Positions 15,053 through 63,031 of a stretch of 64,000 nucleotides of DNA are shown in pieces. The stretch is taken from assembly GCF_053078305.1 (NCBI RefSeq), contig NZ_CP166879.1. One strand, 5' to 3'. How positions within the stretch are numbered: position 1 is the first letter of the stretch; each line of letters starts with the position of its first letter. The position numbers and the translations under genes are program-made. The notes beneath the pieces were generated by a model. That model had not been told where the DNA came from. It saw only the letters and a list, made by a program, of their open reading frames with translations, and did not search any database.

Positions 15053-16990
15053 TCAGTAACGACGTCCCCATTCCGTGGCACTCATCAACGTCGGTTTATC
15101 CCCCATGAAATAGCGGTAGTAAGCGTCATAAGCCAGCACGTTCTTCACATAACCGCGCGTCTCGGAGAATGGAATACTCTCGACAAATGCCACTGCGTCG
15201 ATACGCCCGGCGCTGTTGCCAAGCCAGGTTCGCACCCGCCCTGGTCCGGCGTTATAAGCTGCTGAGGAGAAAATACGATTATTGCCAAACTGCTGATAAA
15301 CATATTGCAGGTAACTGGTGCCAATGTTGATATTCGTTTCCGGATCCAGCAATTGCCCAAGACTGCTATAACCGGGAATAGAGAACATCTTCACCGTATG
15401 GGTCGCTGTACCAGGCATAATCTGCATCAGGCCGCTGGCCCCTACCGGTGATTTCACTTTCGGATTCCAGGCGCTCTCCTGACGAGCAATCGCCATCGCA
15501 TAGCTTTGCGGGATCTCCTTACCGCTGGTGTAGCGTTTGAAAAGATCGTTGTAAGCCAGCGGGAATCGCTCTTCCAGATGATCCCACAGCTTCCCGGCGA
15601 TCGTTGCCTGAACGCTAAGATCCCACCATTGGTTGTTGAAAGCATACCGCGCCAGTTGAGCTTGCTCTGTTTTTGACTTGCTCTTCACCAGATTGGCCCA
15701 CTCGCTACGCGCGGTGTTATCGAGATTCCAGTACATCAACTCGCGCACGCGCGCCATCTCCGGCCCCTCAGTCAGGGCGCTGTCAACATTCTGCGGCGCT
15801 TTATCAATCTTCAGCTCATACTCTTCGCCGATGCGTTGTGCTGCAACCATCGGGTAGAAACCACGCTGTTGCATGAGTTGATGCAAAATCTCTTTCGCTT
15901 CAGCTTCACGTCCGCGTTCCAGCAATAAATCCGCCTGCCAGTAACGCCATTCATCTTTCTCTTTCGCCTCCATCGGCAAACGCGCCAGCCAGGTATTCAG
16001 GCCGCGACGATCACCGGTGCCAAGCGCCATTCGCACACGGCGTTCAATCAACGACGTGGATTGCGAGCGCATAATGGCGTCATCGCGCCATTTCGCCTGC
16101 TCGTCGGTGACATCGTTGCCCATCAAACGCCAGGCGACGATATCGCGCAGCTCCTGAATCTGATCTTCATTAAGCTGCTGCGCCTGGGCAAGCGATGGGA
16201 TCATCAGCCGTGCACTCTCAGCATCCTGCCGCGCCACACTGGCAAACGCCACCGCCGCCATTTGACGGGTAAAATCGGTCGCTCCGGTTGTACGCGCGAA
16301 GGTCAGTACCGTATTAGGGTTGTTCGCCAGTGAAATGATTGCCGAGGCGATAGTCTGGTAATCGGCAGGCATCTGCCCTGCCAGCACTGTTACCAGGCCA
16401 GTGTTACCCGCTTTCATCGCCAGACGGATACGCTCTAAATACGCCAGCGGATCTTGTTTACCTGACGCACGCCAGACACTAAATAACTTGTCACAGGCGT
16501 TAGGCTGGCTCTTGCCGGTTAGCCACAGCTCTTTCGCCCCTTGCCAGGCTTCTTCACTCTGCCCGGTGTTCCATTTCGCATAGTAGTAATTACATTGTGC
16601 TTCGGTAGCTCCGGGCTTTTCCGGGCTAAAGGCTAACAGGCCACGCCAGTCTTCACGCCGCGCCAGTTCATTGACGAAACGAGATTGCAGCGTGCGAGCG
16701 GGAGGAAGCGTGGGGTTAGCGCGAACAAAGTTAGTGACCGTCACCGCCGGTTGATTCATCAGGTCATCGGTGATCTGGCGGTATTCCAGGTAGGGATAAA
16801 GCGGATAATCCTTCAGTCCAGGCATCATTTGTTCGACCACATCCATTTGTCGATTATCCCAGGCCTGCTTGATTTGCGCGTAACGACTACGCTGCTCATC
16901 CAGTGAGTCGGCTCGCGCCACGCTGCTGACCGTCAGCAGACAGACACCGGCAGCCAACAGCCGCCAGGTAACTTGTTTGGCTTTTTCCAC
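15053..16990 (-). CDS. slt: Soluble lytic murein transglycosylase Slt70
   Basis: ORF 15053..17020; start placed at the in-frame GTG giving MEKAKQVTWRLLAAGVCLLTVSSVARA (645 aa). Confidence 0.95.
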   Translation of the reverse strand: MEKAKQVTWRLLAAGVCLLTVSSVARADSLDEQRSRYAQIKQAWDNRQMDVVEQMMPGLKDYPLYPYLEYRQITDDLMNQPAVTVTNFVRANPTLPPARTLQSRFVNELARREDWRGLLAFSPEKPGATEAQCNYYYAKWNTGQSEEAWQGAKELWLTGKSQPNACDKLFSVWRASGKQDPLAYLERIRLAMKAGNTGLVTVLAGQMPADYQTIASAIISLANNPNTVLTFARTTGATDFTRQMAAVAFASVARQDAESARLMIPSLAQAQQLNEDQIQELRDIVAWRLMGNDVTDEQAKWRDDAIMRSQSTSLIERRVRMALGTGDRRGLNTWLARLPMEAKEKDEWRYWQADLLLERGREAEAKEILHQLMQQRGFYPMVAAQRIGEEYELKIDKAPQNVDSALTEGPEMARVRELMYWNLDNTARSEWANLVKSKSKTEQAQLARYAFNNQWWDLSVQATIAGKLWDHLEERFPLAYNDLFKRYTSGKEIPQSYAMAIARQESAWNPKVKSPVGASGLMQIMPGTATHTVKMFSIPGYSSLGQLLDPETNINIGTSYLQYVYQQFGNNRIFSSAAYNAGPGRVRTWLGNSAGRIDAVAFVESIPFSETRGYVKNVLAYDAYYRYFMGDKPTLMSATEWGRRY

Positions 16991-17200
16991 AAGCGCATCC
17001 TCTAAGTGTAAATACATCAATGCAGCGTCATGCCGCGTAATAGATTTATGCTAACCAGTCATTGCCGTTTACGCCACGTTACGGACACTTTTTTACTTTT
17101 ACTGCGAAGGTGATCGACCAACTGGGATTAGGCGGGGAAAAAGGCTACACTTCGCCTTTGAAAACTCATCATCACGATAAACATAGAGGCGAAGTCCAAC

Positions 17201-18868
17201 GTGGCTCAATTCGTTTATACCATGCATCGTGTCGGCAAAGTTGTTCCGCCGAAACGTCATATTTTGAAAAACATCTCTCTGAGTTTCTTCCCTGGGGCAA
17301 AAATTGGTGTCCTGGGTCTGAATGGCGCGGGTAAGTCCACCCTGCTGCGCATTATGGCGGGCATTGATAAAGACATCGAAGGTGAAGCGCGTCCGCAGCC
17401 AGACATCAAGATTGGTTATCTGCCGCAGGAACCGCAGCTGAACCCGGAACACACCGTGCGTGAGTCCATTGAAGAAGCGGTTTCAGAAGTGGTTAACGCC
17501 CTGAAACGCCTGGATGAAGTGTATGCGCTGTACGCCGATCCGGATGCCGATTTTGACAAGCTGGCCGCTGAACAAGGCCGTCTGGAAGAGATCATTCAGG
17601 CTCACGACGGTCATAATCTGAACGTACAGCTGGAGCGTGCGGCGGATGCGCTACGTCTGCCGGACTGGGACGCGAAAATCGCTAACCTCTCCGGTGGTGA
17701 GCGTCGTCGCGTGGCGTTGTGCCGCCTGCTGCTGGAAAAACCAGACATGCTGCTGCTCGACGAACCGACCAACCACCTGGATGCCGAATCCGTGGCCTGG
17801 CTGGAACGCTTCCTGCACGACTTCGAAGGCACCGTGGTGGCGATTACCCACGACCGTTACTTCCTCGATAACGTTGCGGGCTGGATCCTCGAACTTGACC
17901 GCGGTGAAGGTATTCCGTGGGAAGGTAACTACTCCTCCTGGCTGGAGCAGAAAGATCAGCGTCTGGCGCAGGAAGCTTCACAAGAAGCGGCGCGTCGTAA
18001 GTCGATCGAGAAAGAGCTGGAGTGGGTACGTCAGGGAACTAAAGGCCGCCAGTCGAAAGGTAAAGCACGTCTGGCACGCTTTGAAGAGCTGAACAGCACC
18101 GAATACCAGAAACGTAACGAAACCAACGAACTGTTTATTCCACCTGGACCGCGTCTGGGCGATAAAGTGCTGGAAGTCAGCAACCTGCGTAAATCCTACG
18201 GCGATCGCCTGCTGATTGATGACCTGAGCTTCTCGATCCCGAAAGGGGCGATCGTCGGGATCATCGGTCCGAACGGCGCGGGTAAATCGACCCTGTTCCG
18301 TATGATCTCCGGTCAGGAACAGCCGGACAGCGGCACCATCACTTTGGGTGAAACGGTGAAACTGGCATCGGTTGATCAGTTCCGTGACTCAATGGATAAC
18401 AGCAAAACCGTTTGGGAAGAAGTTTCAGGCGGGCTGGATATTATGAAGATCGGCAACACCGAGATGCCAAGCCGCGCCTACGTTGGCCGCTTTAACTTTA
18501 AAGGGGTTGATCAGGGTAAACGCGTTGGTGAACTCTCCGGTGGTGAGCGCGGTCGTCTGCATCTGGCGAAGCTGCTGCAGGTTGGCGGCAACATGCTGCT
18601 GCTAGACGAACCAACCAACGACCTGGATATCGAAACCCTGCGCGCGCTGGAAAACGCCCTGCTGGAGTTCCCGGGCTGTGCGATGGTTATCTCGCACGAC
18701 CGTTGGTTCCTCGACCGTATCGCCACGCACATTCTGGATTACCAGGATGAAGGTAAAGTTGAGTTCTTCGAAGGTAACTTTACCGAGTACGAAGAGTACA
18801 AGAAACGCACGCTGGGCGCAGACGCGCTGGAGCCGAAGCGTATCAAGTACAAGCGTATTGCGAAGTAA
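17201..18868 (+). CDS. ettA: Energy-dependent translational throttle ABC-F ATPase EttA
   Basis: 555-aa ORF with two ABC cassettes (Walker A GLNGAGKST and GPNGAGKST; signature LSGGERRR and LSGGERGR). Confidence 0.97.
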   Translation: MAQFVYTMHRVGKVVPPKRHILKNISLSFFPGAKIGVLGLNGAGKSTLLRIMAGIDKDIEGEARPQPDIKIGYLPQEPQLNPEHTVRESIEEAVSEVVNALKRLDEVYALYADPDADFDKLAAEQGRLEEIIQAHDGHNLNVQLERAADALRLPDWDAKIANLSGGERRRVALCRLLLEKPDMLLLDEPTNHLDAESVAWLERFLHDFEGTVVAITHDRYFLDNVAGWILELDRGEGIPWEGNYSSWLEQKDQRLAQEASQEAARRKSIEKELEWVRQGTKGRQSKGKARLARFEELNSTEYQKRNETNELFIPPGPRLGDKVLEVSNLRKSYGDRLLIDDLSFSIPKGAIVGIIGPNGAGKSTLFRMISGQEQPDSGTITLGETVKLASVDQFRDSMDNSKTVWEEVSGGLDIMKIGNTEMPSRAYVGRFNFKGVDQGKRVGELSGGERGRLHLAKLLQVGGNMLLLDEPTNDLDIETLRALENALLEFPGCAMVISHDRWFLDRIATHILDYQDEGKVEFFEGNFTEYEEYKKRTLGADALEPKRIKYKRIAK

Positions 18869-19023: not shown

Positions 19024-19911
19024 CTATTCACCGCGCAGAATCTGGCGGAAATGGGAAACCAACGGACGTTGGTTGGCTTTATGCCAGGCTGCCCATAATT
19101 GCGTTGAATAATTCATCCACGGCAATTCACGTAATACCACCCCTTCCGGCGCATTATGACGCAGACTATGTTGAATTAAGGCCAGACCTAATCCCGCAGC
19201 GACCAGACCTAATGCCGTGAGGGGTTCACCCGCTTCCAGGCGAATATCAGGATTAAACCCGGCGTTAACACAGGCGGCGACAAAATGATCGCGAGAATGC
19301 GCATCGTCGTTATGAATCACCGCAATCCACTGCTCATCGCCAAGTTGTGACGCGACAAGGTTTTCCTCCTGCGCCAGAGGATGATTTTGCGGTAAGGCCA
19401 ACAACATTCGATCATCCAGAACCTGAATATATTCCAGATCCTGCTCGCTGTCGGTGGGCGGCGTATCGACCAGAGAAAAATCGAGACTGCGCTGGCGCAG
19501 GCCTTCAATCTGGGTAGCCGGTGGTTGGCTGTAAAGTGCGATATGCACATTCGGACGCGATACACGTAACGTACGTAGCGCCGTAGAAAGCACACCGGAA
19601 TGCATGGCGTTTTCGATATAGCCAATACACAAGCCACCATCTTCCCCCCGTCCCAGGCGTTTGCCTAACGACTCCAGGCGGTTGGCGTGTGTCAGCAACG
19701 AACGTGTTTCGGCAAGGAATGTCTGTCCATCAGCGGTCAGGCGAATGCGCTGCTGATTACGCTCAAACAGCGTCAGCCCCAGTCGTTCTTCCAGTTGTGC
19801 AATCTGGCGGCTCAGCGGCGATTGCGAGATATGTAATCGCTCGGCTGCGCGTCCCACGTGCTCTTCTTCTGCGACCACCACGAAGTACTTCAGTTGGCGT
19901 AAATCAATCAT
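19024..19911 (-). CDS. LysR-family transcriptional regulator (accessory island)
   Basis: ORF 19024..20004; start placed at the Met giving MIDLRQLKYFVVVAEEEHVGRAAERLHISQSPLSRQIAQLEE (LysR HTH); divergent from the AKR-SDR-SRPBCC operon. Confidence 0.85.
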   Translation of the reverse strand: MIDLRQLKYFVVVAEEEHVGRAAERLHISQSPLSRQIAQLEERLGLTLFERNQQRIRLTADGQTFLAETRSLLTHANRLESLGKRLGRGEDGGLCIGYIENAMHSGVLSTALRTLRVSRPNVHIALYSQPPATQIEGLRQRSLDFSLVDTPPTDSEQDLEYIQVLDDRMLLALPQNHPLAQEENLVASQLGDEQWIAVIHNDDAHSRDHFVAACVNAGFNPDIRLEAGEPLTALGLVAAGLGLALIQHSLRHNAPEGVVLRELPWMNYSTQLWAAWHKANQRPLVSHFRQILRGE

Positions 19912-19976
19912 GTTAGACCTCAAAGGACTTAAGTCAGACGAATTATGTCCTATCAAGTCACAACCTCGCAAGGTAT

Positions 19977-19992
19977 TGTGATCCACGTCACA
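19977..19992. promoter_or_regulatory. Perfect TGTGA-N6-TCACA palindrome (CRP-like core or regulator operator) in the divergent promoter region
   Basis: TGTGATCCACGTCACA read directly from the sequence between the LysR start (19911) and the AKR start (20045). Confidence 0.35.
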
Positions 19993-20044
19993 GGGCGATA
20001 GCAAAAAAACGCCCTAACCCAAACCGAATAATTGAGGACATCTT

Positions 20045-21055
20045 ATGAGCATTAAAAATTTACTCCCCGGCAAAATTGGCTTAGGCGGCGCACCACTTGG
20101 CAACATGTTCCGTGCCATTCCGGAAGAAGAGGCCCACGCCACCGTGAGCGAAGCCTGGAACCTGGGTGTGCGTTACTTTGATACCGCGCCGCTGTACGGC
20201 TCTGGCCTTTCTGAAATCCGCATGGGTGAAGCGCTGTCTCAGTATCCACGCGATGAATACGTTCTGAGTAGCAAAGTCGGTCGCATCATGCTGGACGAAA
20301 TGGAAGATCCGGCAAAACGGGATTTCGGTGAAAAAGGTGGCCTGTTCGAACACGGCCTGAAAAACAAAATTCTGAATGACTACTCTGCTGACGCCACTCT
20401 GCGCTCGATTGAAGACAGCCTGAAACGCCTGAAAACAGACCGTCTGGATATTGTCTGGATCCACGACCCGGCGCAGGACTTCTACGGTGACAGCTGGCTG
20501 GAGCAGTTCAACATTGCCCGTACCGGTGCATTTCGTGCGCTGACGCGTTTGCGTGACGAAGGTGTGATTAAAGCCTGGGGACTGGGTGTGAACCGCGTCG
20601 AACCTTGCGAACTGACGCTGGCGCTGGACGAACCGAAGCCGGATGCGTTCCTGCTGGCGGGGCGTTATTCCCTGCTGGATCACGAACGTGCGCTGCAACG
20701 CCTGATGCCAGAAGCACTGGAACAGAACGTGGATATCGTTGTGGGCGGTCCATACAGCTCTGGCGTACTGGCAGGCGGCGAGCACTTTGAATATCAGAAA
20801 GCCTCTGCGGCCATCCAGCAGAAAGTGGCGCAAATTAACGCCATTGCCACACGTTTCAATGTGAACGTTAAAGCGGCTGCGCTGCAGTTCGCGCTGGCAA
20901 ACCCGGCCGTTGCAGCGGTTATTCCTGGCTCCAGCCGTCCTGGTCGTATGGCAGAAGATCTGGCTGCACTGAATGCGCCTGTTCCGGCTGAATTCTGGGC
21001 AGAAATGCGCCGTCAAAATCTGGTTGCGGAAAACGCTCCGCTGCCGACCCGTTAA
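20045..21055 (+). CDS. Aldo-keto reductase family oxidoreductase (accessory island)
   Basis: 336-aa ORF with AKR-like N-terminus (GLGGAPLGNMF...YFDTAPLYGSG...); RBS GAGGA upstream. Confidence 0.85.
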   Translation: MSIKNLLPGKIGLGGAPLGNMFRAIPEEEAHATVSEAWNLGVRYFDTAPLYGSGLSEIRMGEALSQYPRDEYVLSSKVGRIMLDEMEDPAKRDFGEKGGLFEHGLKNKILNDYSADATLRSIEDSLKRLKTDRLDIVWIHDPAQDFYGDSWLEQFNIARTGAFRALTRLRDEGVIKAWGLGVNRVEPCELTLALDEPKPDAFLLAGRYSLLDHERALQRLMPEALEQNVDIVVGGPYSSGVLAGGEHFEYQKASAAIQQKVAQINAIATRFNVNVKAAALQFALANPAVAAVIPGSSRPGRMAEDLAALNAPVPAEFWAEMRRQNLVAENAPLPTR

Positions 21056-21074
21056 TCAACCAGGTGAGAAAACG

Positions 21075-21872
21075 ATGAAACTGGATCTGACAGGTAAAGT
21101 CGCGGTGGTCAGCGGCTCAACCTCCGGCATTGGGCAGGGTATCGCCGCCGGACTGGCAAAAGCAGGCGCAACGGTGGTTGTCGTCGGCCGTAAACAGAGC
21201 GGCGTTGATGACGCCATGGCTGCGATTGCGGCACAAACTCCCACAGCGTCACTGCGCGGCGTGGTGGCCGATCTCAGCACCGAAGACGGCGTGGCTGCGC
21301 TGATCGCTGCAGTCCCAACGGCTGATGTGCTGGTCAATAATCTGGGCATTTTTAACGATAAAGATTTCTTTAGCGTTCCGGATGATGAGTGGATGCACTT
21401 CTATAACGTCAACGTCCTCTCCGGCGTTCGTCTGGCGCGTCACTATGCGCCAGGCATGACGGAACAGGGCTGGGGGCGGATTATCTTTGTCTCGTCCGAA
21501 TCCGGCGTGGCAATCCCTGGCGACATGATCAACTACGGCGTCACCAAAGCCGCGAATCTGGCGGTTTCTCATGGTCTGGCGAAACGACTGGCGGGGACCG
21601 GTGTGACCGTCAACGCCATTCTGCCAGGGCCAACCTTTACCGATGGCCTGAAAGAGATGCTGGCGGATGCCGCTGCACAATCGGGACGCAGTGCGCGTGA
21701 ACAGGCCGATGAATTTGTTAAAACCTCGCGTCCGAGCTCCATCATCCAGCGTGCGGCAGATGTGGAAGAAGTGGCGAATCTGGCGGTTTATCTCGCGTCA
21801 CCGCTTTCCTCGGCAACCACAGGGGCAGCCCTGCGCGTCGATGGCGGCGTCGTCGACACCCTGACAATGTAA
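21075..21872 (+). CDS. Short-chain dehydrogenase/reductase (accessory island)
   Basis: ORF 20973..21872; start at MKLDLTGKVAVVSGSTSGIGQGIA (Rossmann TGxxxGIG) with a YxxxK catalytic motif (YGVTK); 19 bp after the AKR gene. Confidence 0.85.
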   Translation: MKLDLTGKVAVVSGSTSGIGQGIAAGLAKAGATVVVVGRKQSGVDDAMAAIAAQTPTASLRGVVADLSTEDGVAALIAAVPTADVLVNNLGIFNDKDFFSVPDDEWMHFYNVNVLSGVRLARHYAPGMTEQGWGRIIFVSSESGVAIPGDMINYGVTKAANLAVSHGLAKRLAGTGVTVNAILPGPTFTDGLKEMLADAAAQSGRSAREQADEFVKTSRPSSIIQRAADVEEVANLAVYLASPLSSATTGAALRVDGGVVDTLTM

Positions 21873-21897
21873 CCCTATAAATTAAGAGAAAATTATC

Positions 21898-22314
21898 ATG
21901 GCTAAAACAACTGTATCGATCGAAATTCCGGCTTCTGGCGACGCCGTATGGCAATTGATGGGCGGCTTTGATGCGCTGCCAGACTGGCTACCATTCATCC
22001 CGAAAAGCGTGGTGACAGAAGGCGGTCGCGTTCGTTCGCTGACAACCTCTGACGGCGGCACTGTGGTTGAACGTCTGGAAGCGTTTGATAACCGTCAACG
22101 CAGTTATACCTATTCCATTATTCAGGCACCGTTCCCGGTGGTGGATTACCTCTCCACCATTACCGTTCATGAAACCGCCGACAGCCAGGTTTCCCGTGTG
22201 GAATGGTTCGGTGAATTCACCCCGGTGAATGTGACGAACGAAGAGGCCGAGGCGCTGTTTACCGGCATCTATCGGGATGGACTCAAGGCGCTTAAGGACA
22301 ACTTTGTTGCCTGA
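21898..22314 (+). CDS. SRPBCC / Bet v1-like (polyketide cyclase-type) small protein
   Basis: 138-aa ORF 25 bp after the SDR gene; size and composition fit SRPBCC ligand-binding proteins; assignment is by resemblance only. Confidence 0.6.
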   Translation: MAKTTVSIEIPASGDAVWQLMGGFDALPDWLPFIPKSVVTEGGRVRSLTTSDGGTVVERLEAFDNRQRSYTYSIIQAPFPVVDYLSTITVHETADSQVSRVEWFGEFTPVNVTNEEAEALFTGIYRDGLKALKDNFVA

Positions 22315-22471: not shown

Positions 22472-22684
22472 ATGAAAACGATCATCGCAATTTTTACCGC
22501 TTCTCTTTTCTCTGTCGCGGCGTTTAACGCATCGGCGCAAAGCGTGACAGCAACCGGTACAACACTGGATTCCGCTGAAGCGGTTATTGCGCAGAAAGCG
22601 AAAGAGATGAACGCCTCTGAATACAAAATTACCAGCGCTCGCATGGGCAATACCGTCACCATGAGTGCCGAACTGTATAAATAA
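22472..22684 (+). CDS. DUF1471 (YhcN/YdgH-like) small periplasmic stress protein
   Basis: 70-aa ORF with signal peptide MKTIIAIFTASLFSVAAFNASA and the conserved C-terminal motif of the family (...KITSARMGNTVTMSAELYK). Confidence 0.75.
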   Translation: MKTIIAIFTASLFSVAAFNASAQSVTATGTTLDSAEAVIAQKAKEMNASEYKITSARMGNTVTMSAELYK

Positions 22685-22708: not shown

Positions 22709-23039
22709 TTTGCTAAATATGCGCTGAATGCGTTGCCATTAATAAACCGTATTGTACTGCCACCGATGACGCGTTCCCGCGCCGGTGCGGGTGACGTTGC
22801 GATTGGCATGATGGCGGAGTATTACGCGCAGCGCGCCAGTGCTGGACTTATCATCAGCGAAGGTACGCAAATCAGCAGAATCGCTGCGCATAATTTTCCA
22901 CGGCACGCTGATTTACTCCGGTAAATACACCAAAGCGCGCGCCGAACAGGCGCTGGCTAACGGCTGGTCGGATCTGATTGGTTTTGGTCGTCCGTATAGT
23001 GCCAGGAGCGGAAGTTGTCGAAGGGTCATAAAGAGCTAA
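22709..23039 (+). pseudogene. Decayed Old Yellow Enzyme (NemA-like) flavin oxidoreductase: N- and C-terminal fragments with an internal deletion and frameshift
   Basis: Frame A reads ...NRIVLPPMTRSRAGAGDVAIGMMAEYYAQRASAGLIISEGTQIS (like the NemA N-terminus); frame B reads ...HGTLIYSGKYTKARAEQALANGWSDLIGFGRPY (like the NemA C-terminal region); no ATG start; the middle two-thirds of the protein is missing. Confidence 0.7.
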
Positions 23040-34403: not shown

Positions 34404-34600
34404 TCTACTCCGCAACACACTTCGATATACATCACAATTAAGGAAATCTACTTACAAGTTTGCATCACTGTAATGCGATCTGGTTCAAATAATTCACTTT
34501 CAAATGAATGCGTCAGTGGTGGCAAACGCATCAGGATCAAAGTGAACATCACGAAACTTCTTACAATGGCGCATCACCTTCGGCATAAAAGGAAAAGAAG

Positions 34601-60588: not shown

Positions 60589-60685
60589 TATTTATAGCAT
60601 GAATATAATTTTTAAATGAGTTACACAACCGAGGGCTAAAAATCGCTTCGGTTGTGATCATCATCACATAAATAACCTTCATAAA

Positions 60686-60713: not shown

Positions 60714-60880
60714 CTGACCGCTTACGTCCCTAAAATAACCACTCAGTTATTTACCTTACTTTACGCGCGCGTAACTCTGGCAGCATCACTGCAGGATAGC
60801 GGTCAATTTACCTCCTCAAACGCAACGCAAACCTAGAACGGCTTCGGCCAACTATTAATCAATACATGCCAGGTTTTACT

Positions 60881-63031
60881 ATGGATACGAAAAAACTATT
60901 CAAGCACATACCCTGGGTGATTCTCGGAATCATCGGTGCATTCTGCCTCGCGGTAGTTGCATTACGTCGGGGGGAGCACGTCAGTGCCCTGTGGATCGTG
61001 GTCGCCTCTGTGTCGGTGTATCTGGTGGCGTATCGCTACTACAGTCTGTACATCGCCCAGAAGGTGATGAAACTCGACCCTACGCGCGCGACGCCTGCGG
61101 TTATTAACAACGACGGTCTGAACTATGTTCCGACCAACCGTTACGTGTTGTTTGGTCACCACTTCGCCGCTATCGCCGGTGCCGGTCCGCTGGTTGGTCC
61201 GGTGCTCGCCGCGCAGATGGGCTACCTGCCTGGCACGCTGTGGCTGCTGGCGGGGGTAGTGCTGGCCGGTGCGGTACAGGACTTTATGGTGCTGTTTATC
61301 TCCTCTCGCCGTAACGGCGCATCTCTCGGTGAGATGATCAAAGAAGAGATGGGGCCAGTACCGGGGACTATCGCGCTGTTTGGCTGTTTCTTAATCATGA
61401 TCATCATCCTAGCCGTCCTGGCGCTGATTGTGGTTAAAGCCCTGGCCGAAAGTCCGTGGGGTGTCTTCACCGTTTGCTCAACCGTACCGATTGCGCTGTT
61501 TATGGGTATCTACATGCGCTTTATCCGTCCGGGGCGTGTGGGTGAAGTCTCTGTTATTGGTATCGTGCTGCTGGTTGCCTCTATCTACTTCGGTGGCGTG
61601 ATTGCTCACGATCCGTACTGGGGTCCGGCACTGACCTTTAAAGACACCACCATTACCTTCGCGCTGATTGGCTATGCGTTTGTTTCCGCACTGCTGCCGG
61701 TGTGGCTGATCCTCGCACCGCGCGACTATCTGGCAACCTTCCTGAAAATCGGCGTTATCGTCGGCCTGGCGCTGGGTATCGTGGTGCTGAACCCGGAACT
61801 GAAAATGCCTGCGATGACCCAGTACATTGACGGTACTGGCCCGCTGTGGAAAGGCGCTCTGTTCCCGTTCCTGTTCATCACCATCGCCTGTGGTGCGGTA
61901 TCTGGCTTCCACGCGCTGATCTCTTCCGGTACGACGCCGAAACTGCTGGCTAACGAAACCGACGCGCGTTTCATCGGCTACGGCGCAATGCTGATGGAGT
62001 CCTTCGTGGCGATTATGGCGCTGGTTGCAGCGTCCATCATCGAACCGGGTCTTTACTTCGCGATGAACACTCCGCCTGCTGGCCTTGGCATCACCATGCC
62101 TAACCTGCATGAAATGGGTGGCGAGAACGCGCCGATCATCATGGCGCAGCTGAAAGACGTTACCGCACACGCGGCAGCGACCGTCAGCTCCTGGGGCTTC
62201 GTGATTTCGCCAGAGCAGATCCTGCAAACCGCGAAAGACATTGGTGAGCCTTCTGTCCTGAACCGTGCAGGTGGTGCGCCGACGCTGGCGGTAGGTATCG
62301 CTCATGTGTTCCACAAAGTGCTACCGATGGCTGACATGGGCTTCTGGTATCACTTCGGTATTCTGTTCGAAGCCCTGTTCATCCTGACCGCGCTGGATGC
62401 GGGTACCCGTTCTGGCCGCTTTATGCTGCAAGATCTGCTGGGTAACTTCATCCCGTTCCTGAAAAAAACCGACTCTCTGGTTGCCGGTATCATCGGTACT
62501 GCGGGCTGTGTGGGTCTGTGGGGCTACCTGCTGTATCAGGGCGTGGTCGATCCGCTGGGCGGCGTTAAGAGCCTGTGGCCGCTGTTCGGTATCTCCAACC
62601 AGATGCTGGCAGCCGTAGCGCTGGTACTGGGCACCGTTGTGCTGATTAAGATGAAGCGCACCCAATACATCTGGGTAACTGTTGTTCCGGCTGTATGGCT
62701 GCTTATCTGCACCACCTGGGCGCTGGGCCTGAAACTGTTCAGCACCAACCCGCAGATGGAAGGCTTCTTCTACATGGCAAGCCAGTACAAAGAGAAGATT
62801 GCTAACGGTACTGACCTGACGGCGCAGCAGATTGCCAACATGAACCACATCGTTGTGAACAACTACACCAACGCGGGCCTGAGTATTCTGTTCCTGATTG
62901 TGGTGTACAGCATCATCTTCTACGGTTTCAAAACCTGGCTTGCGGTGCGTAACAGCGACAAACGTACTGACAAAGAAACACCGTACGTTCCAATCCCGGA
63001 AGGCGGCGTGAAGATCTCTTCGCACCACTAA
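60881..63031 (+). CDS. btsT: Pyruvate/H+ symporter BtsT (CstA family)
   Basis: ORF 60866..63031; start placed at MDTKKLFKHIPWVILGIIGAFCLAVVALRRGEH (716 aa); polytopic membrane protein. Confidence 0.95.
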   Translation: MDTKKLFKHIPWVILGIIGAFCLAVVALRRGEHVSALWIVVASVSVYLVAYRYYSLYIAQKVMKLDPTRATPAVINNDGLNYVPTNRYVLFGHHFAAIAGAGPLVGPVLAAQMGYLPGTLWLLAGVVLAGAVQDFMVLFISSRRNGASLGEMIKEEMGPVPGTIALFGCFLIMIIILAVLALIVVKALAESPWGVFTVCSTVPIALFMGIYMRFIRPGRVGEVSVIGIVLLVASIYFGGVIAHDPYWGPALTFKDTTITFALIGYAFVSALLPVWLILAPRDYLATFLKIGVIVGLALGIVVLNPELKMPAMTQYIDGTGPLWKGALFPFLFITIACGAVSGFHALISSGTTPKLLANETDARFIGYGAMLMESFVAIMALVAASIIEPGLYFAMNTPPAGLGITMPNLHEMGGENAPIIMAQLKDVTAHAAATVSSWGFVISPEQILQTAKDIGEPSVLNRAGGAPTLAVGIAHVFHKVLPMADMGFWYHFGILFEALFILTALDAGTRSGRFMLQDLLGNFIPFLKKTDSLVAGIIGTAGCVGLWGYLLYQGVVDPLGGVKSLWPLFGISNQMLAAVALVLGTVVLIKMKRTQYIWVTVVPAVWLLICTTWALGLKLFSTNPQMEGFFYMASQYKEKIANGTDLTAQQIANMNHIVVNNYTNAGLSILFLIVVYSIIFYGFKTWLAVRNSDKRTDKETPYVPIPEGGVKISSHH

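Follow-up and report, generated by a model that had tools for sequence, protein, structure and literature searches.

A perfect TGTGA-N6-TCACA palindrome, TGTGA-TCCACG-TCACA (TGTGATCCACGTCACA), occupies positions 19977–19992 of the 64,000-nucleotide stretch of Escherichia coli chromosome analysed here (the window), within the 133-bp intergenic region (19912–20044) that separates a gene for a LysR-type regulator from an aldo/keto reductase operon. Centred at 19984.5 and with a 22-bp footprint at 19974–19995, it is a predicted CRP–cAMP operator. Judged from the DNA, CRP probably binds this palindrome, and we rate binding followed by repression of the reductase operon as about an even bet. The palindrome itself, its rarity, its matrix score, its pattern of conservation and the promoter-like elements around it can be read directly; from these we infer both start points, the LysR operator, CRP binding and the sign of regulation. 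A first-pass annotation of this DNA had placed the palindrome at the same coordinates in the LysR/reductase gap and had described the gap as a divergent LysR/oxidoreductase control region; the sequence and its coordinates proved correct, and the gene calls (LysR, aldo/keto reductase, SDR and SRPBCC) hold.

The genes form part of an island between ettA and nadR on the E. coli chromosome, with slt (15053–17020, minus strand) and ettA (17201–18868) preceding it and nadR following. The lysR gene (19024–19911, minus strand; start codon on the complement of 19909–19911), called from its open reading frame and family hits, encodes a 295-aa regulator (RefSeq WP_000566334.1) and diverges from the operon. 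The operon (20045–22314, plus strand) comprises genes for the aldo/keto reductase (20045–21055, ATG at 20045), an SDR oxidoreductase (21075–21872) and an SRPBCC/polyketide-cyclase-like protein (21898–22314). A Shine–Dalgarno motif of the reductase gene, GAGGA, was read from the sequence at 20034–20038 (plus strand) and is invariant in five palindrome-bearing lineages. A DUF1471 gene (22472–22684) and an old-yellow-enzyme fragment (22766–22879) come after the operon. The island is carried by 482 of 5,426 complete E. coli genomes (~9%), at a single chromosomal site throughout.

Both the cassette and its regulator are uncharacterised. Among curated models, AlsR, HcaR and PRK09986 all fell below cut-off for the regulator and no equivalog matched, and a literature search for the combination of LysR, aldo-keto reductase and SRPBCC found nothing. 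Among solved structures the reductase comes nearest to L-galactose dehydrogenases, a weak match. Gene order is identical in Klebsiella, Serratia, Ewingella, Acinetobacter-type and Providencia-type loci, and orthologues of the regulator with 62–91% identity, from Klebsiella to Streptomyces, diverge from the same reductase in many taxa; these include Klebsiella, Serratia, Ewingella, Providencia/Xenorhabdus and Acinetobacter, and also Pseudomonas, Variovorax, Burkholderia, Cupriavidus, Paraburkholderia, Duganella and five Streptomyces species. The old-yellow-enzyme (FMN oxidoreductase) gene of the window retains an N-terminal fragment only and is annotated as incomplete in RefSeq. At the same position, locus L093 (1–210), which is flanked by conjugative-element genes, encodes a 365-aa product with an Oxidored_FMN domain that runs past the end of the locus. 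The E. coli copy resembles what decay would leave of a larger cassette.

The palindrome is rare and strong by CRP standards. In dinucleotide-preserving shuffles TGTGA-N6-TCACA is expected 0.09 times per 64-kb window, and it was observed twice, at 19977 and 60653. Allowing one mismatch gave three matches in the window against 1.5 expected, an ordinary count, so only the perfect match is notable. For scoring we used a symmetric position matrix derived from 107 CRP sites under ChIP-seq peaks in the enterotoxigenic E. coli strain H10407 (PMC4287617, Table 1). The palindrome reached 19.5 bits out of a possible maximum of 22.1, the best score in the 64-kb window and higher than 97% of the 107 ChIP sites (median 13.1 bits). 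It matches the core half-sites at 10 of 10 positions, in agreement with the first-pass annotation, whose view that a perfect consensus site is unusual is borne out by the ChIP set, where the core is perfect in just 8 of 107. With the same matrix the homologous 16-mer scored −2.7 bits in Serratia and −14 in Pseudomonas. The extended 22-bp CRP consensus is AAATGTGATCTAGATCACATTT, with A/T-rich flanks; here TAT on the 5′ side is tolerable whereas GGG on the 3′ side does not fit, giving 14 of 22 matches (counted by hand). Both crp and cyaA are core E. coli genes and lie outside the window.

The second-best site in the window, TGTGATCATCATCACA at 60653–60668, also has a perfect core (19.3 bits) and lies 198 nt upstream of a gene for a 721-aa CstA-family pyruvate transporter (60866–63031), next to a chemoreceptor gene. 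We take the former to be btsT/yjiY and the latter to be tsr. Regulation of btsT/yjiY by cAMP–CRP has been reported (PMC5431176), and because the site is absent from the training set it serves as an independent positive control. This btsT-upstream site is missing from the H10407 ChIP-seq list. The next-best matrix hits were at 34421–34436 and 34474–34489; the first of them is the reverse complement of the ChIP-listed yjjI/deoC site TGTGATGTATATCGAA, and its recovery is circular since that site is in the training table. The H10407 table lists no site corresponding to the palindrome of the cassette, and that strain does not carry the island, with nadR adjoining ettA. A literature search for Klebsiella CRP ChIP-seq yielded nothing usable.

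Across lineages, the palindrome was found only in Escherichia/Klebsiella-type copies of the cassette, those with regulators at least 90% identical. Within E. coli, 368 of the 482 genomes are identical over 19968–20000 and the other 114 differ at one base; in three sampled from these 114 the differing base falls in an arm of the downstream hairpin (see below), and every E. coli variant read keeps the palindrome intact. The spacer is TCCACG in E. coli, TTTCCG in L093, TCTCCG in the Klebsiella loci L085 and L100, and TCAGCG in L121 and L125. Among five palindrome-bearing sequences with four spacer types, none of the seven half-site positions outside the −10 box varies, compared with three of six spacer positions and 25 of 55 neighbouring intergenic positions (half-site versus neighbouring positions, one-sided Fisher p = 0.02, from only four or five lineages). 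A variable spacer centre fits a CRP site, because the CRP protein makes no contact there.

The palindrome is absent from the orthologous regions of Serratia, Ewingella, Providencia-type and Acinetobacter-type loci, Pseudomonas, Burkholderiales and Streptomyces, and over 21 lineages the information content at 19980–19992 is about 0.6 bit or lower. About five substitutions lead from the Serratia-type sequence to the palindrome, all of them towards the CRP consensus. Serratia, Ewingella and Providencia also possess CRP yet lack the site, which makes the site dispensable for the function of the cassette. Read from the alignments, then, the palindrome is a lineage-specific addition, distinct from a LysR dyad. 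The stretch just 3′ of the −10 box is also conserved inside the Pseudomonas clade (CTGCTCAACGGTC), so part of the constraint there could be unrelated to CRP. In the plasmid collection we found distant copies only (Ewingella, Burkholderiales and Streptomyces) and no further palindrome-bearing lineage. Two matches from a metagenome pattern search (L105/L106 and L127) lay outside the cassette and were discarded as chance.

The intergenic region of the window can be aligned without internal gaps to its counterparts at 26 orthologous loci, which range from Streptomyces to Klebsiella. This ungapped alignment covers the lysR-proximal 70 bp of the 27 regions, two or three rows having a small insertion beside the lysR start codon; the control-region comparison drew on loci L005–L023, L040 and L085–L096, and information content and dyads were analysed in 21 representative lineages from two phyla. 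Conservation across phyla spans 19915–19979 and then falls to near zero. The conserved blocks are AGACC (19915–19919), GGACTTAAGT (19925–19934), ATTATGTC (19942–19949, containing ATGTC at 19945–19949), GTC (19957–19959), CAA (19969–19971) and TA...T (19974–19979). The boxes are laid out as GAC-N7-GAC-N18-GTC-N7-GTC, symmetric about 19937.5, and GACTTAAGTC forms a palindrome within the conserved-box region. From its conservation and position, 19915–19959 is probably the operator of the cassette's own LysR regulator. It would extend over about −71 to −27 relative to the inferred operon promoter, where LysR-type tetramers classically leave their footprint, and it also covers the lysR −10 box. Residues 1–60 of the regulator, its N-terminal PF00126 helix-turn-helix (HTH) region, are almost invariant in 15 aligned proteobacterial orthologues. 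The gap-free alignment from E. coli to Streptomyces implies horizontal transfer of genes and operator between phyla as a single unit. Of the side results this is the most notable: the regulator gene and its whole operator/promoter block appear to have moved between Actinomycetota and Pseudomonadota with their spacing intact.

Two back-to-back promoters can be placed on this framework. The predicted lysR promoter (19942–19971, minus strand) has a −35 element TTGCGA (19971–19966), an 18-nt spacer and a −10 element CATAAT (19947–19942), with 9 of 12 matches in the promoter scan and a start point at about 19935; its ATTATG and GCAA are conserved in proteobacterial orthologues. The inferred operon promoter, P_AKR (19951–19979, plus strand), combines a weak −35 element TATCAA (19951–19956), a 17-nt spacer and a −10 element TATTGT (19974–19979), which would put the start point at about 19985–19987 (near 19986). 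All 36 of 36 sequences have TAnnnT at the identical position without gaps, and its distance from the conserved boxes does not change; at the homologous place in Burkholderia the promoter scan calls TGGACA-17-TAGACT on the reductase strand, and in beta-proteobacteria only ~33 nt lie between the TAnnnT element and the ATG. Given the invariance, the Burkholderia call and these short leaders, which leave no room for a promoter elsewhere, we take TAnnnT to be the −10 box of the operon.

The palindrome thus overlaps the last three bases of the operon −10 box and the start point, spanning about −9 to +7; its centre falls near −1.5 when counted from the inferred start of the operon and near −49.5 when counted from that predicted for lysR. 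Relative to both predicted starts, this centre coincides with none of the activating CRP positions (−41.5, −61.5, −72.5, −82.5 and −92.5), and no conserved −10 element spaced for class I or class II activation was found for either gene; TAACCC at 20015–20020 is a poor −10 and becomes GAACCC in lineages that retain the palindrome. Class I/II activation by CRP was therefore rejected. Centres at about −1.5 and −49.5 fit repression by occlusion, and direct repression is an established mode of CRP action. The first-pass annotation had proposed strong catabolite control of the cassette, which is plausible in itself; the position, however, implies repression by cAMP–CRP and not the usual activation.

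We propose that the region is a compact pair of back-to-back promoters that would be ruled first by the cassette's own LysR-type regulator. Its operator (~19915–19959) would cover the lysR promoter and so mediate autorepression, the overlap implying autoregulation, and the end of the operator over the weak operon −35 implies inducer-dependent activation of the reductase genes. Escherichia/Klebsiella lineages would then have gained a consensus CRP site lying over the −10 box and start point of the operon. At high cAMP, CRP–cAMP bound at the palindrome would exclude RNA polymerase and switch the reductase operon off, so that expression would need both the inducer of the LysR regulator and low cAMP, as in glucose-replete growth.

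CRP might instead bind and act positively or architecturally, by freeing the lysR promoter or by bending DNA for the LysR tetramer, or have no effect at all. Many well-bound CRP sites show no measurable regulatory effect, and the matrix score and conservation would serve this reading equally; the operon and lysR promoters overlap, so blocking one could free the other. Bound sites in non-canonical places are also common, 34% of ChIP-bound CRP sites being intragenic and many being intragenic or non-canonically placed (PMC4287617). Against a positive role, about −49.5 from the predicted lysR start is no known activating position, and the only other −10 candidate at class I/II distances is the poor and unconserved TAACCC. 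We regard this reading as quite unlikely. It is also unlikely, to a lesser degree, that drift produced the perfect core in a cassette shared recently by Escherichia and Klebsiella and that the core plays no part in regulation. About seven perfect cores are expected per 5-Mb genome (extrapolated from the window shuffles), the palindrome-bearing lineages are closely related (regulators at least 90% identical), the conservation test does no better than p = 0.02 and the initial transcribed region is conserved in Pseudomonas too. Drift would nevertheless have had to supply some five substitutions from the Serratia-type sequence, every one towards the consensus, and to retain the half-sites while three central spacer positions changed in every lineage; the site is also intergenic and exactly on a promoter, and the window's other perfect match lies upstream of a gene for which CRP regulation has been reported.

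The first-pass annotation had also considered the palindrome compatible with a LysR-type dyad. Tested for three properties of LysR boxes (a T-N11-A pattern, co-conservation with the regulator and a position between −80 and −20), the palindrome failed on all of them: its symmetry is even, with T/A pairs at N10, N12 and N14 and never T-N11-A; it sits at about −9 to +7; and it is missing from most orthologues despite the near-invariant HTH of the regulator. On these three counts it is not a LysR dyad. In a related and more specific version, the cassette's LysR regulator would, when uninduced, contact the palindrome or just the right half of it, CACGTCACA, as an additional downstream subsite, and there would be no CRP site at all. 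LysR-type tetramers such as BenM and CbnR do use a third, promoter-proximal subsite, which counts for it; CACGTCACA (19984–19992) repeats the box CAAGTCACA (19954–19962) as a 9-nt direct repeat 30 bp away and includes GTC, the core of the conserved boxes. The direct repeat, however, is lost in other palindrome-bearing lineages, with GTCATA upstream against GTCACA in the palindrome (Klebsiella, L093, L121 and one E. coli variant), and was rejected as a LysR subsite. The spacing matches neither T-N11-A nor the ~10.5-bp register in which the conserved boxes lie, none of these boxes corresponds to the left half TGTGA, and the HTH region stays near-invariant across the 15 orthologues while most lineages lack the palindrome, which together make a downstream subsite improbable. 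Separately, a 6-nt inverted repeat, TCACAA (19958–19963)/TTGTGA (19976–19981) with 12 nt between its arms, bridges a conserved box and the left half-site; in Klebsiella-type copies and some E. coli its TCACAA arm has decayed to TCATAA.

The leader downstream of the palindrome contains the short GC hairpin that the first-pass annotation had pointed out, an inverted repeat GGGCG (19993–19997)/CGCCC (20010–20014). It extends to a stem-loop AGGGCG (19992–19997)/CGCCCT (20010–20015) on the plus strand (19992–20015), with a 12-nt A-rich loop, covering roughly +7 to +30 of the predicted transcript, and its fold has a centroid energy of −9.2 kcal/mol. The whole E. coli leader folds no better than its dinucleotide-shuffled versions (z = −1.37), 18 of 200 of which were equally stable, and single-sequence z-scores across loci average −1.4. 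In the MAFFT leader alignment, in which two Acinetobacter-type rows are one column out of register, 69% of cells were paired against 63% after shuffling, and three pairs changed on both sides; the G–C pairs of the hairpin core never vary. Hairpins of different sequence recur at the same place in Klebsiella (GGGCGAC/GTCGCCC), L100 (GGGCAGT/ATTGCCC), L121, Streptomyces, Serratia (GGGGC/GCCCC), Acinetobacter-type loci (GGCAGT/ACTGCC) and Pseudomonas (GGTCA/TGACC, loops of 4–7 nt), and the short beta-proteobacterial leaders have none. A scan of 19992–20025 found no intrinsic terminator (the tail reads TAACCCAAACC), and the hairpin is not a terminator since no T-run follows the stem; the covariance models of Rfam 15 gave no match at E ≤ 10 over 19700–20300 on either strand. 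A stem-loop near the 5′ end of the leader is plausible, though unproven, and its role would most likely be in transcript stability, separate from the CRP site.

That the palindrome and hairpin jointly make up one structured element of RNA or DNA, for example an attenuator, a cruciform or a leader resembling a riboswitch, seems highly improbable. It has in its favour the two adjacent inverted repeats and the recurrence of leader hairpins with differing sequences in several genera; on the other side, the start point inferred inside the palindrome means that only its right arm would be transcribed, the leader folds no better than shuffles and covaries modestly, neither an Rfam match nor a terminator-like T-run was found in the segments scanned, and the hairpin is missing from the short beta-proteobacterial leaders. 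Several further features of these leaders were seen. The A-run of the loop (20003–20009) is A7 or A6 among E. coli genomes, and polymorphisms in the hairpin arms (GGGCA, GGGTG and TGCCC, plus strand) are mostly compatible with wobble pairing. One 7-nt loop, AGCACAA, is common to the leader hairpins of L085 (Klebsiella) and L023 (Streptomyces griseoluteus), whose stems are unrelated; this is probably a coincidence. L040 (Pseudomonas sp. RIT-PI-q) has an extra, highly palindromic insertion of ~100 nt between the −10 box and the reductase ATG (CTGTAGGAGCC...GGCTCCTACA) that resembles a REP-type element, and its promoter-proximal part is otherwise as in other Pseudomonas.

Returning to the predicted CRP operator, its confirmation would add a high-affinity and probably repressive CRP target in ~9% of complete E. 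coli genomes and in Klebsiella pneumoniae, and would give an uncharacterised oxidoreductase cassette a simple logic, namely expression when the LysR inducer is present and cAMP is low. More tentatively, an old mobile cassette may have been rewired in Enterobacteriaceae through gain of a CRP operator on its start point, yielding an 'inducer AND low cAMP' logic. If so, an operon detoxifying carbonyls or electrophiles would be allowed only in glucose-replete growth, when methylglyoxal-like glycolytic by-products form, and the locus would be a clean natural case of a global regulator bolted as a repressor onto a conserved specific switch. A by-product may be of more use than the CRP site: for an unstudied family of LysR regulators that has spread across two phyla, the alignment delimits the likely operator and both promoters. 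The same alignment shows a way to recognise a lineage-specific global input against a conserved background. Current understanding of CRP and of LysR-type regulators is unchanged by the finding.

Compared with known systems, the locus is probably, to judge from its sequence, the standard divergent layout of a LysR regulator and its target with an added CRP operator, a candidate new operator of a known kind. With E. coli CRP operators it shares the symmetric TGTGA-N6-TCACA core and a score within the top 3% of ChIP-bound sites, and, like several bound sites (hemL, aroM, rnk and yedP), it begins its spacer with T and has CGTCACA as its right half. Its overlap with the −10 box and start is what is expected of occluding CRP repressor sites, the site here being a predicted one. 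Unlike those operators, it has an atypical G-rich 3′ flank and sits on a LysR-dependent promoter in an accessory island, in Escherichia/Klebsiella-type copies only.

Like BenM–benA, CbnR–cbnA, CatR–catB and AlsR–alsSD, the locus has a divergent regulator, back-to-back promoters and a multi-box operator, at about −71 to −27 over the −10 box of the regulator, with a target −35 that is weak in enteric bacteria; it differs from them in its GAC-N7-GAC-N18-GTC-N7-GTC boxes, which contain no obvious T-N11-A dyad. In the ompA type of leader, 5′-terminal stem-loops stabilise bacterial mRNAs, and the leader here similarly has a G+C-rich hairpin without terminator features within ~7 nt of the inferred 5′ end, whereas its thermodynamic signal is non-significant. 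Further parallels are tdcABC (TdcA) and dsdXA (DsdC), LysR-regulated operons with an upstream CRP site that activates. As there, a specific LysR-type activator and a cAMP–CRP input would meet at one promoter; the difference is that the position of the CRP site here predicts repression.
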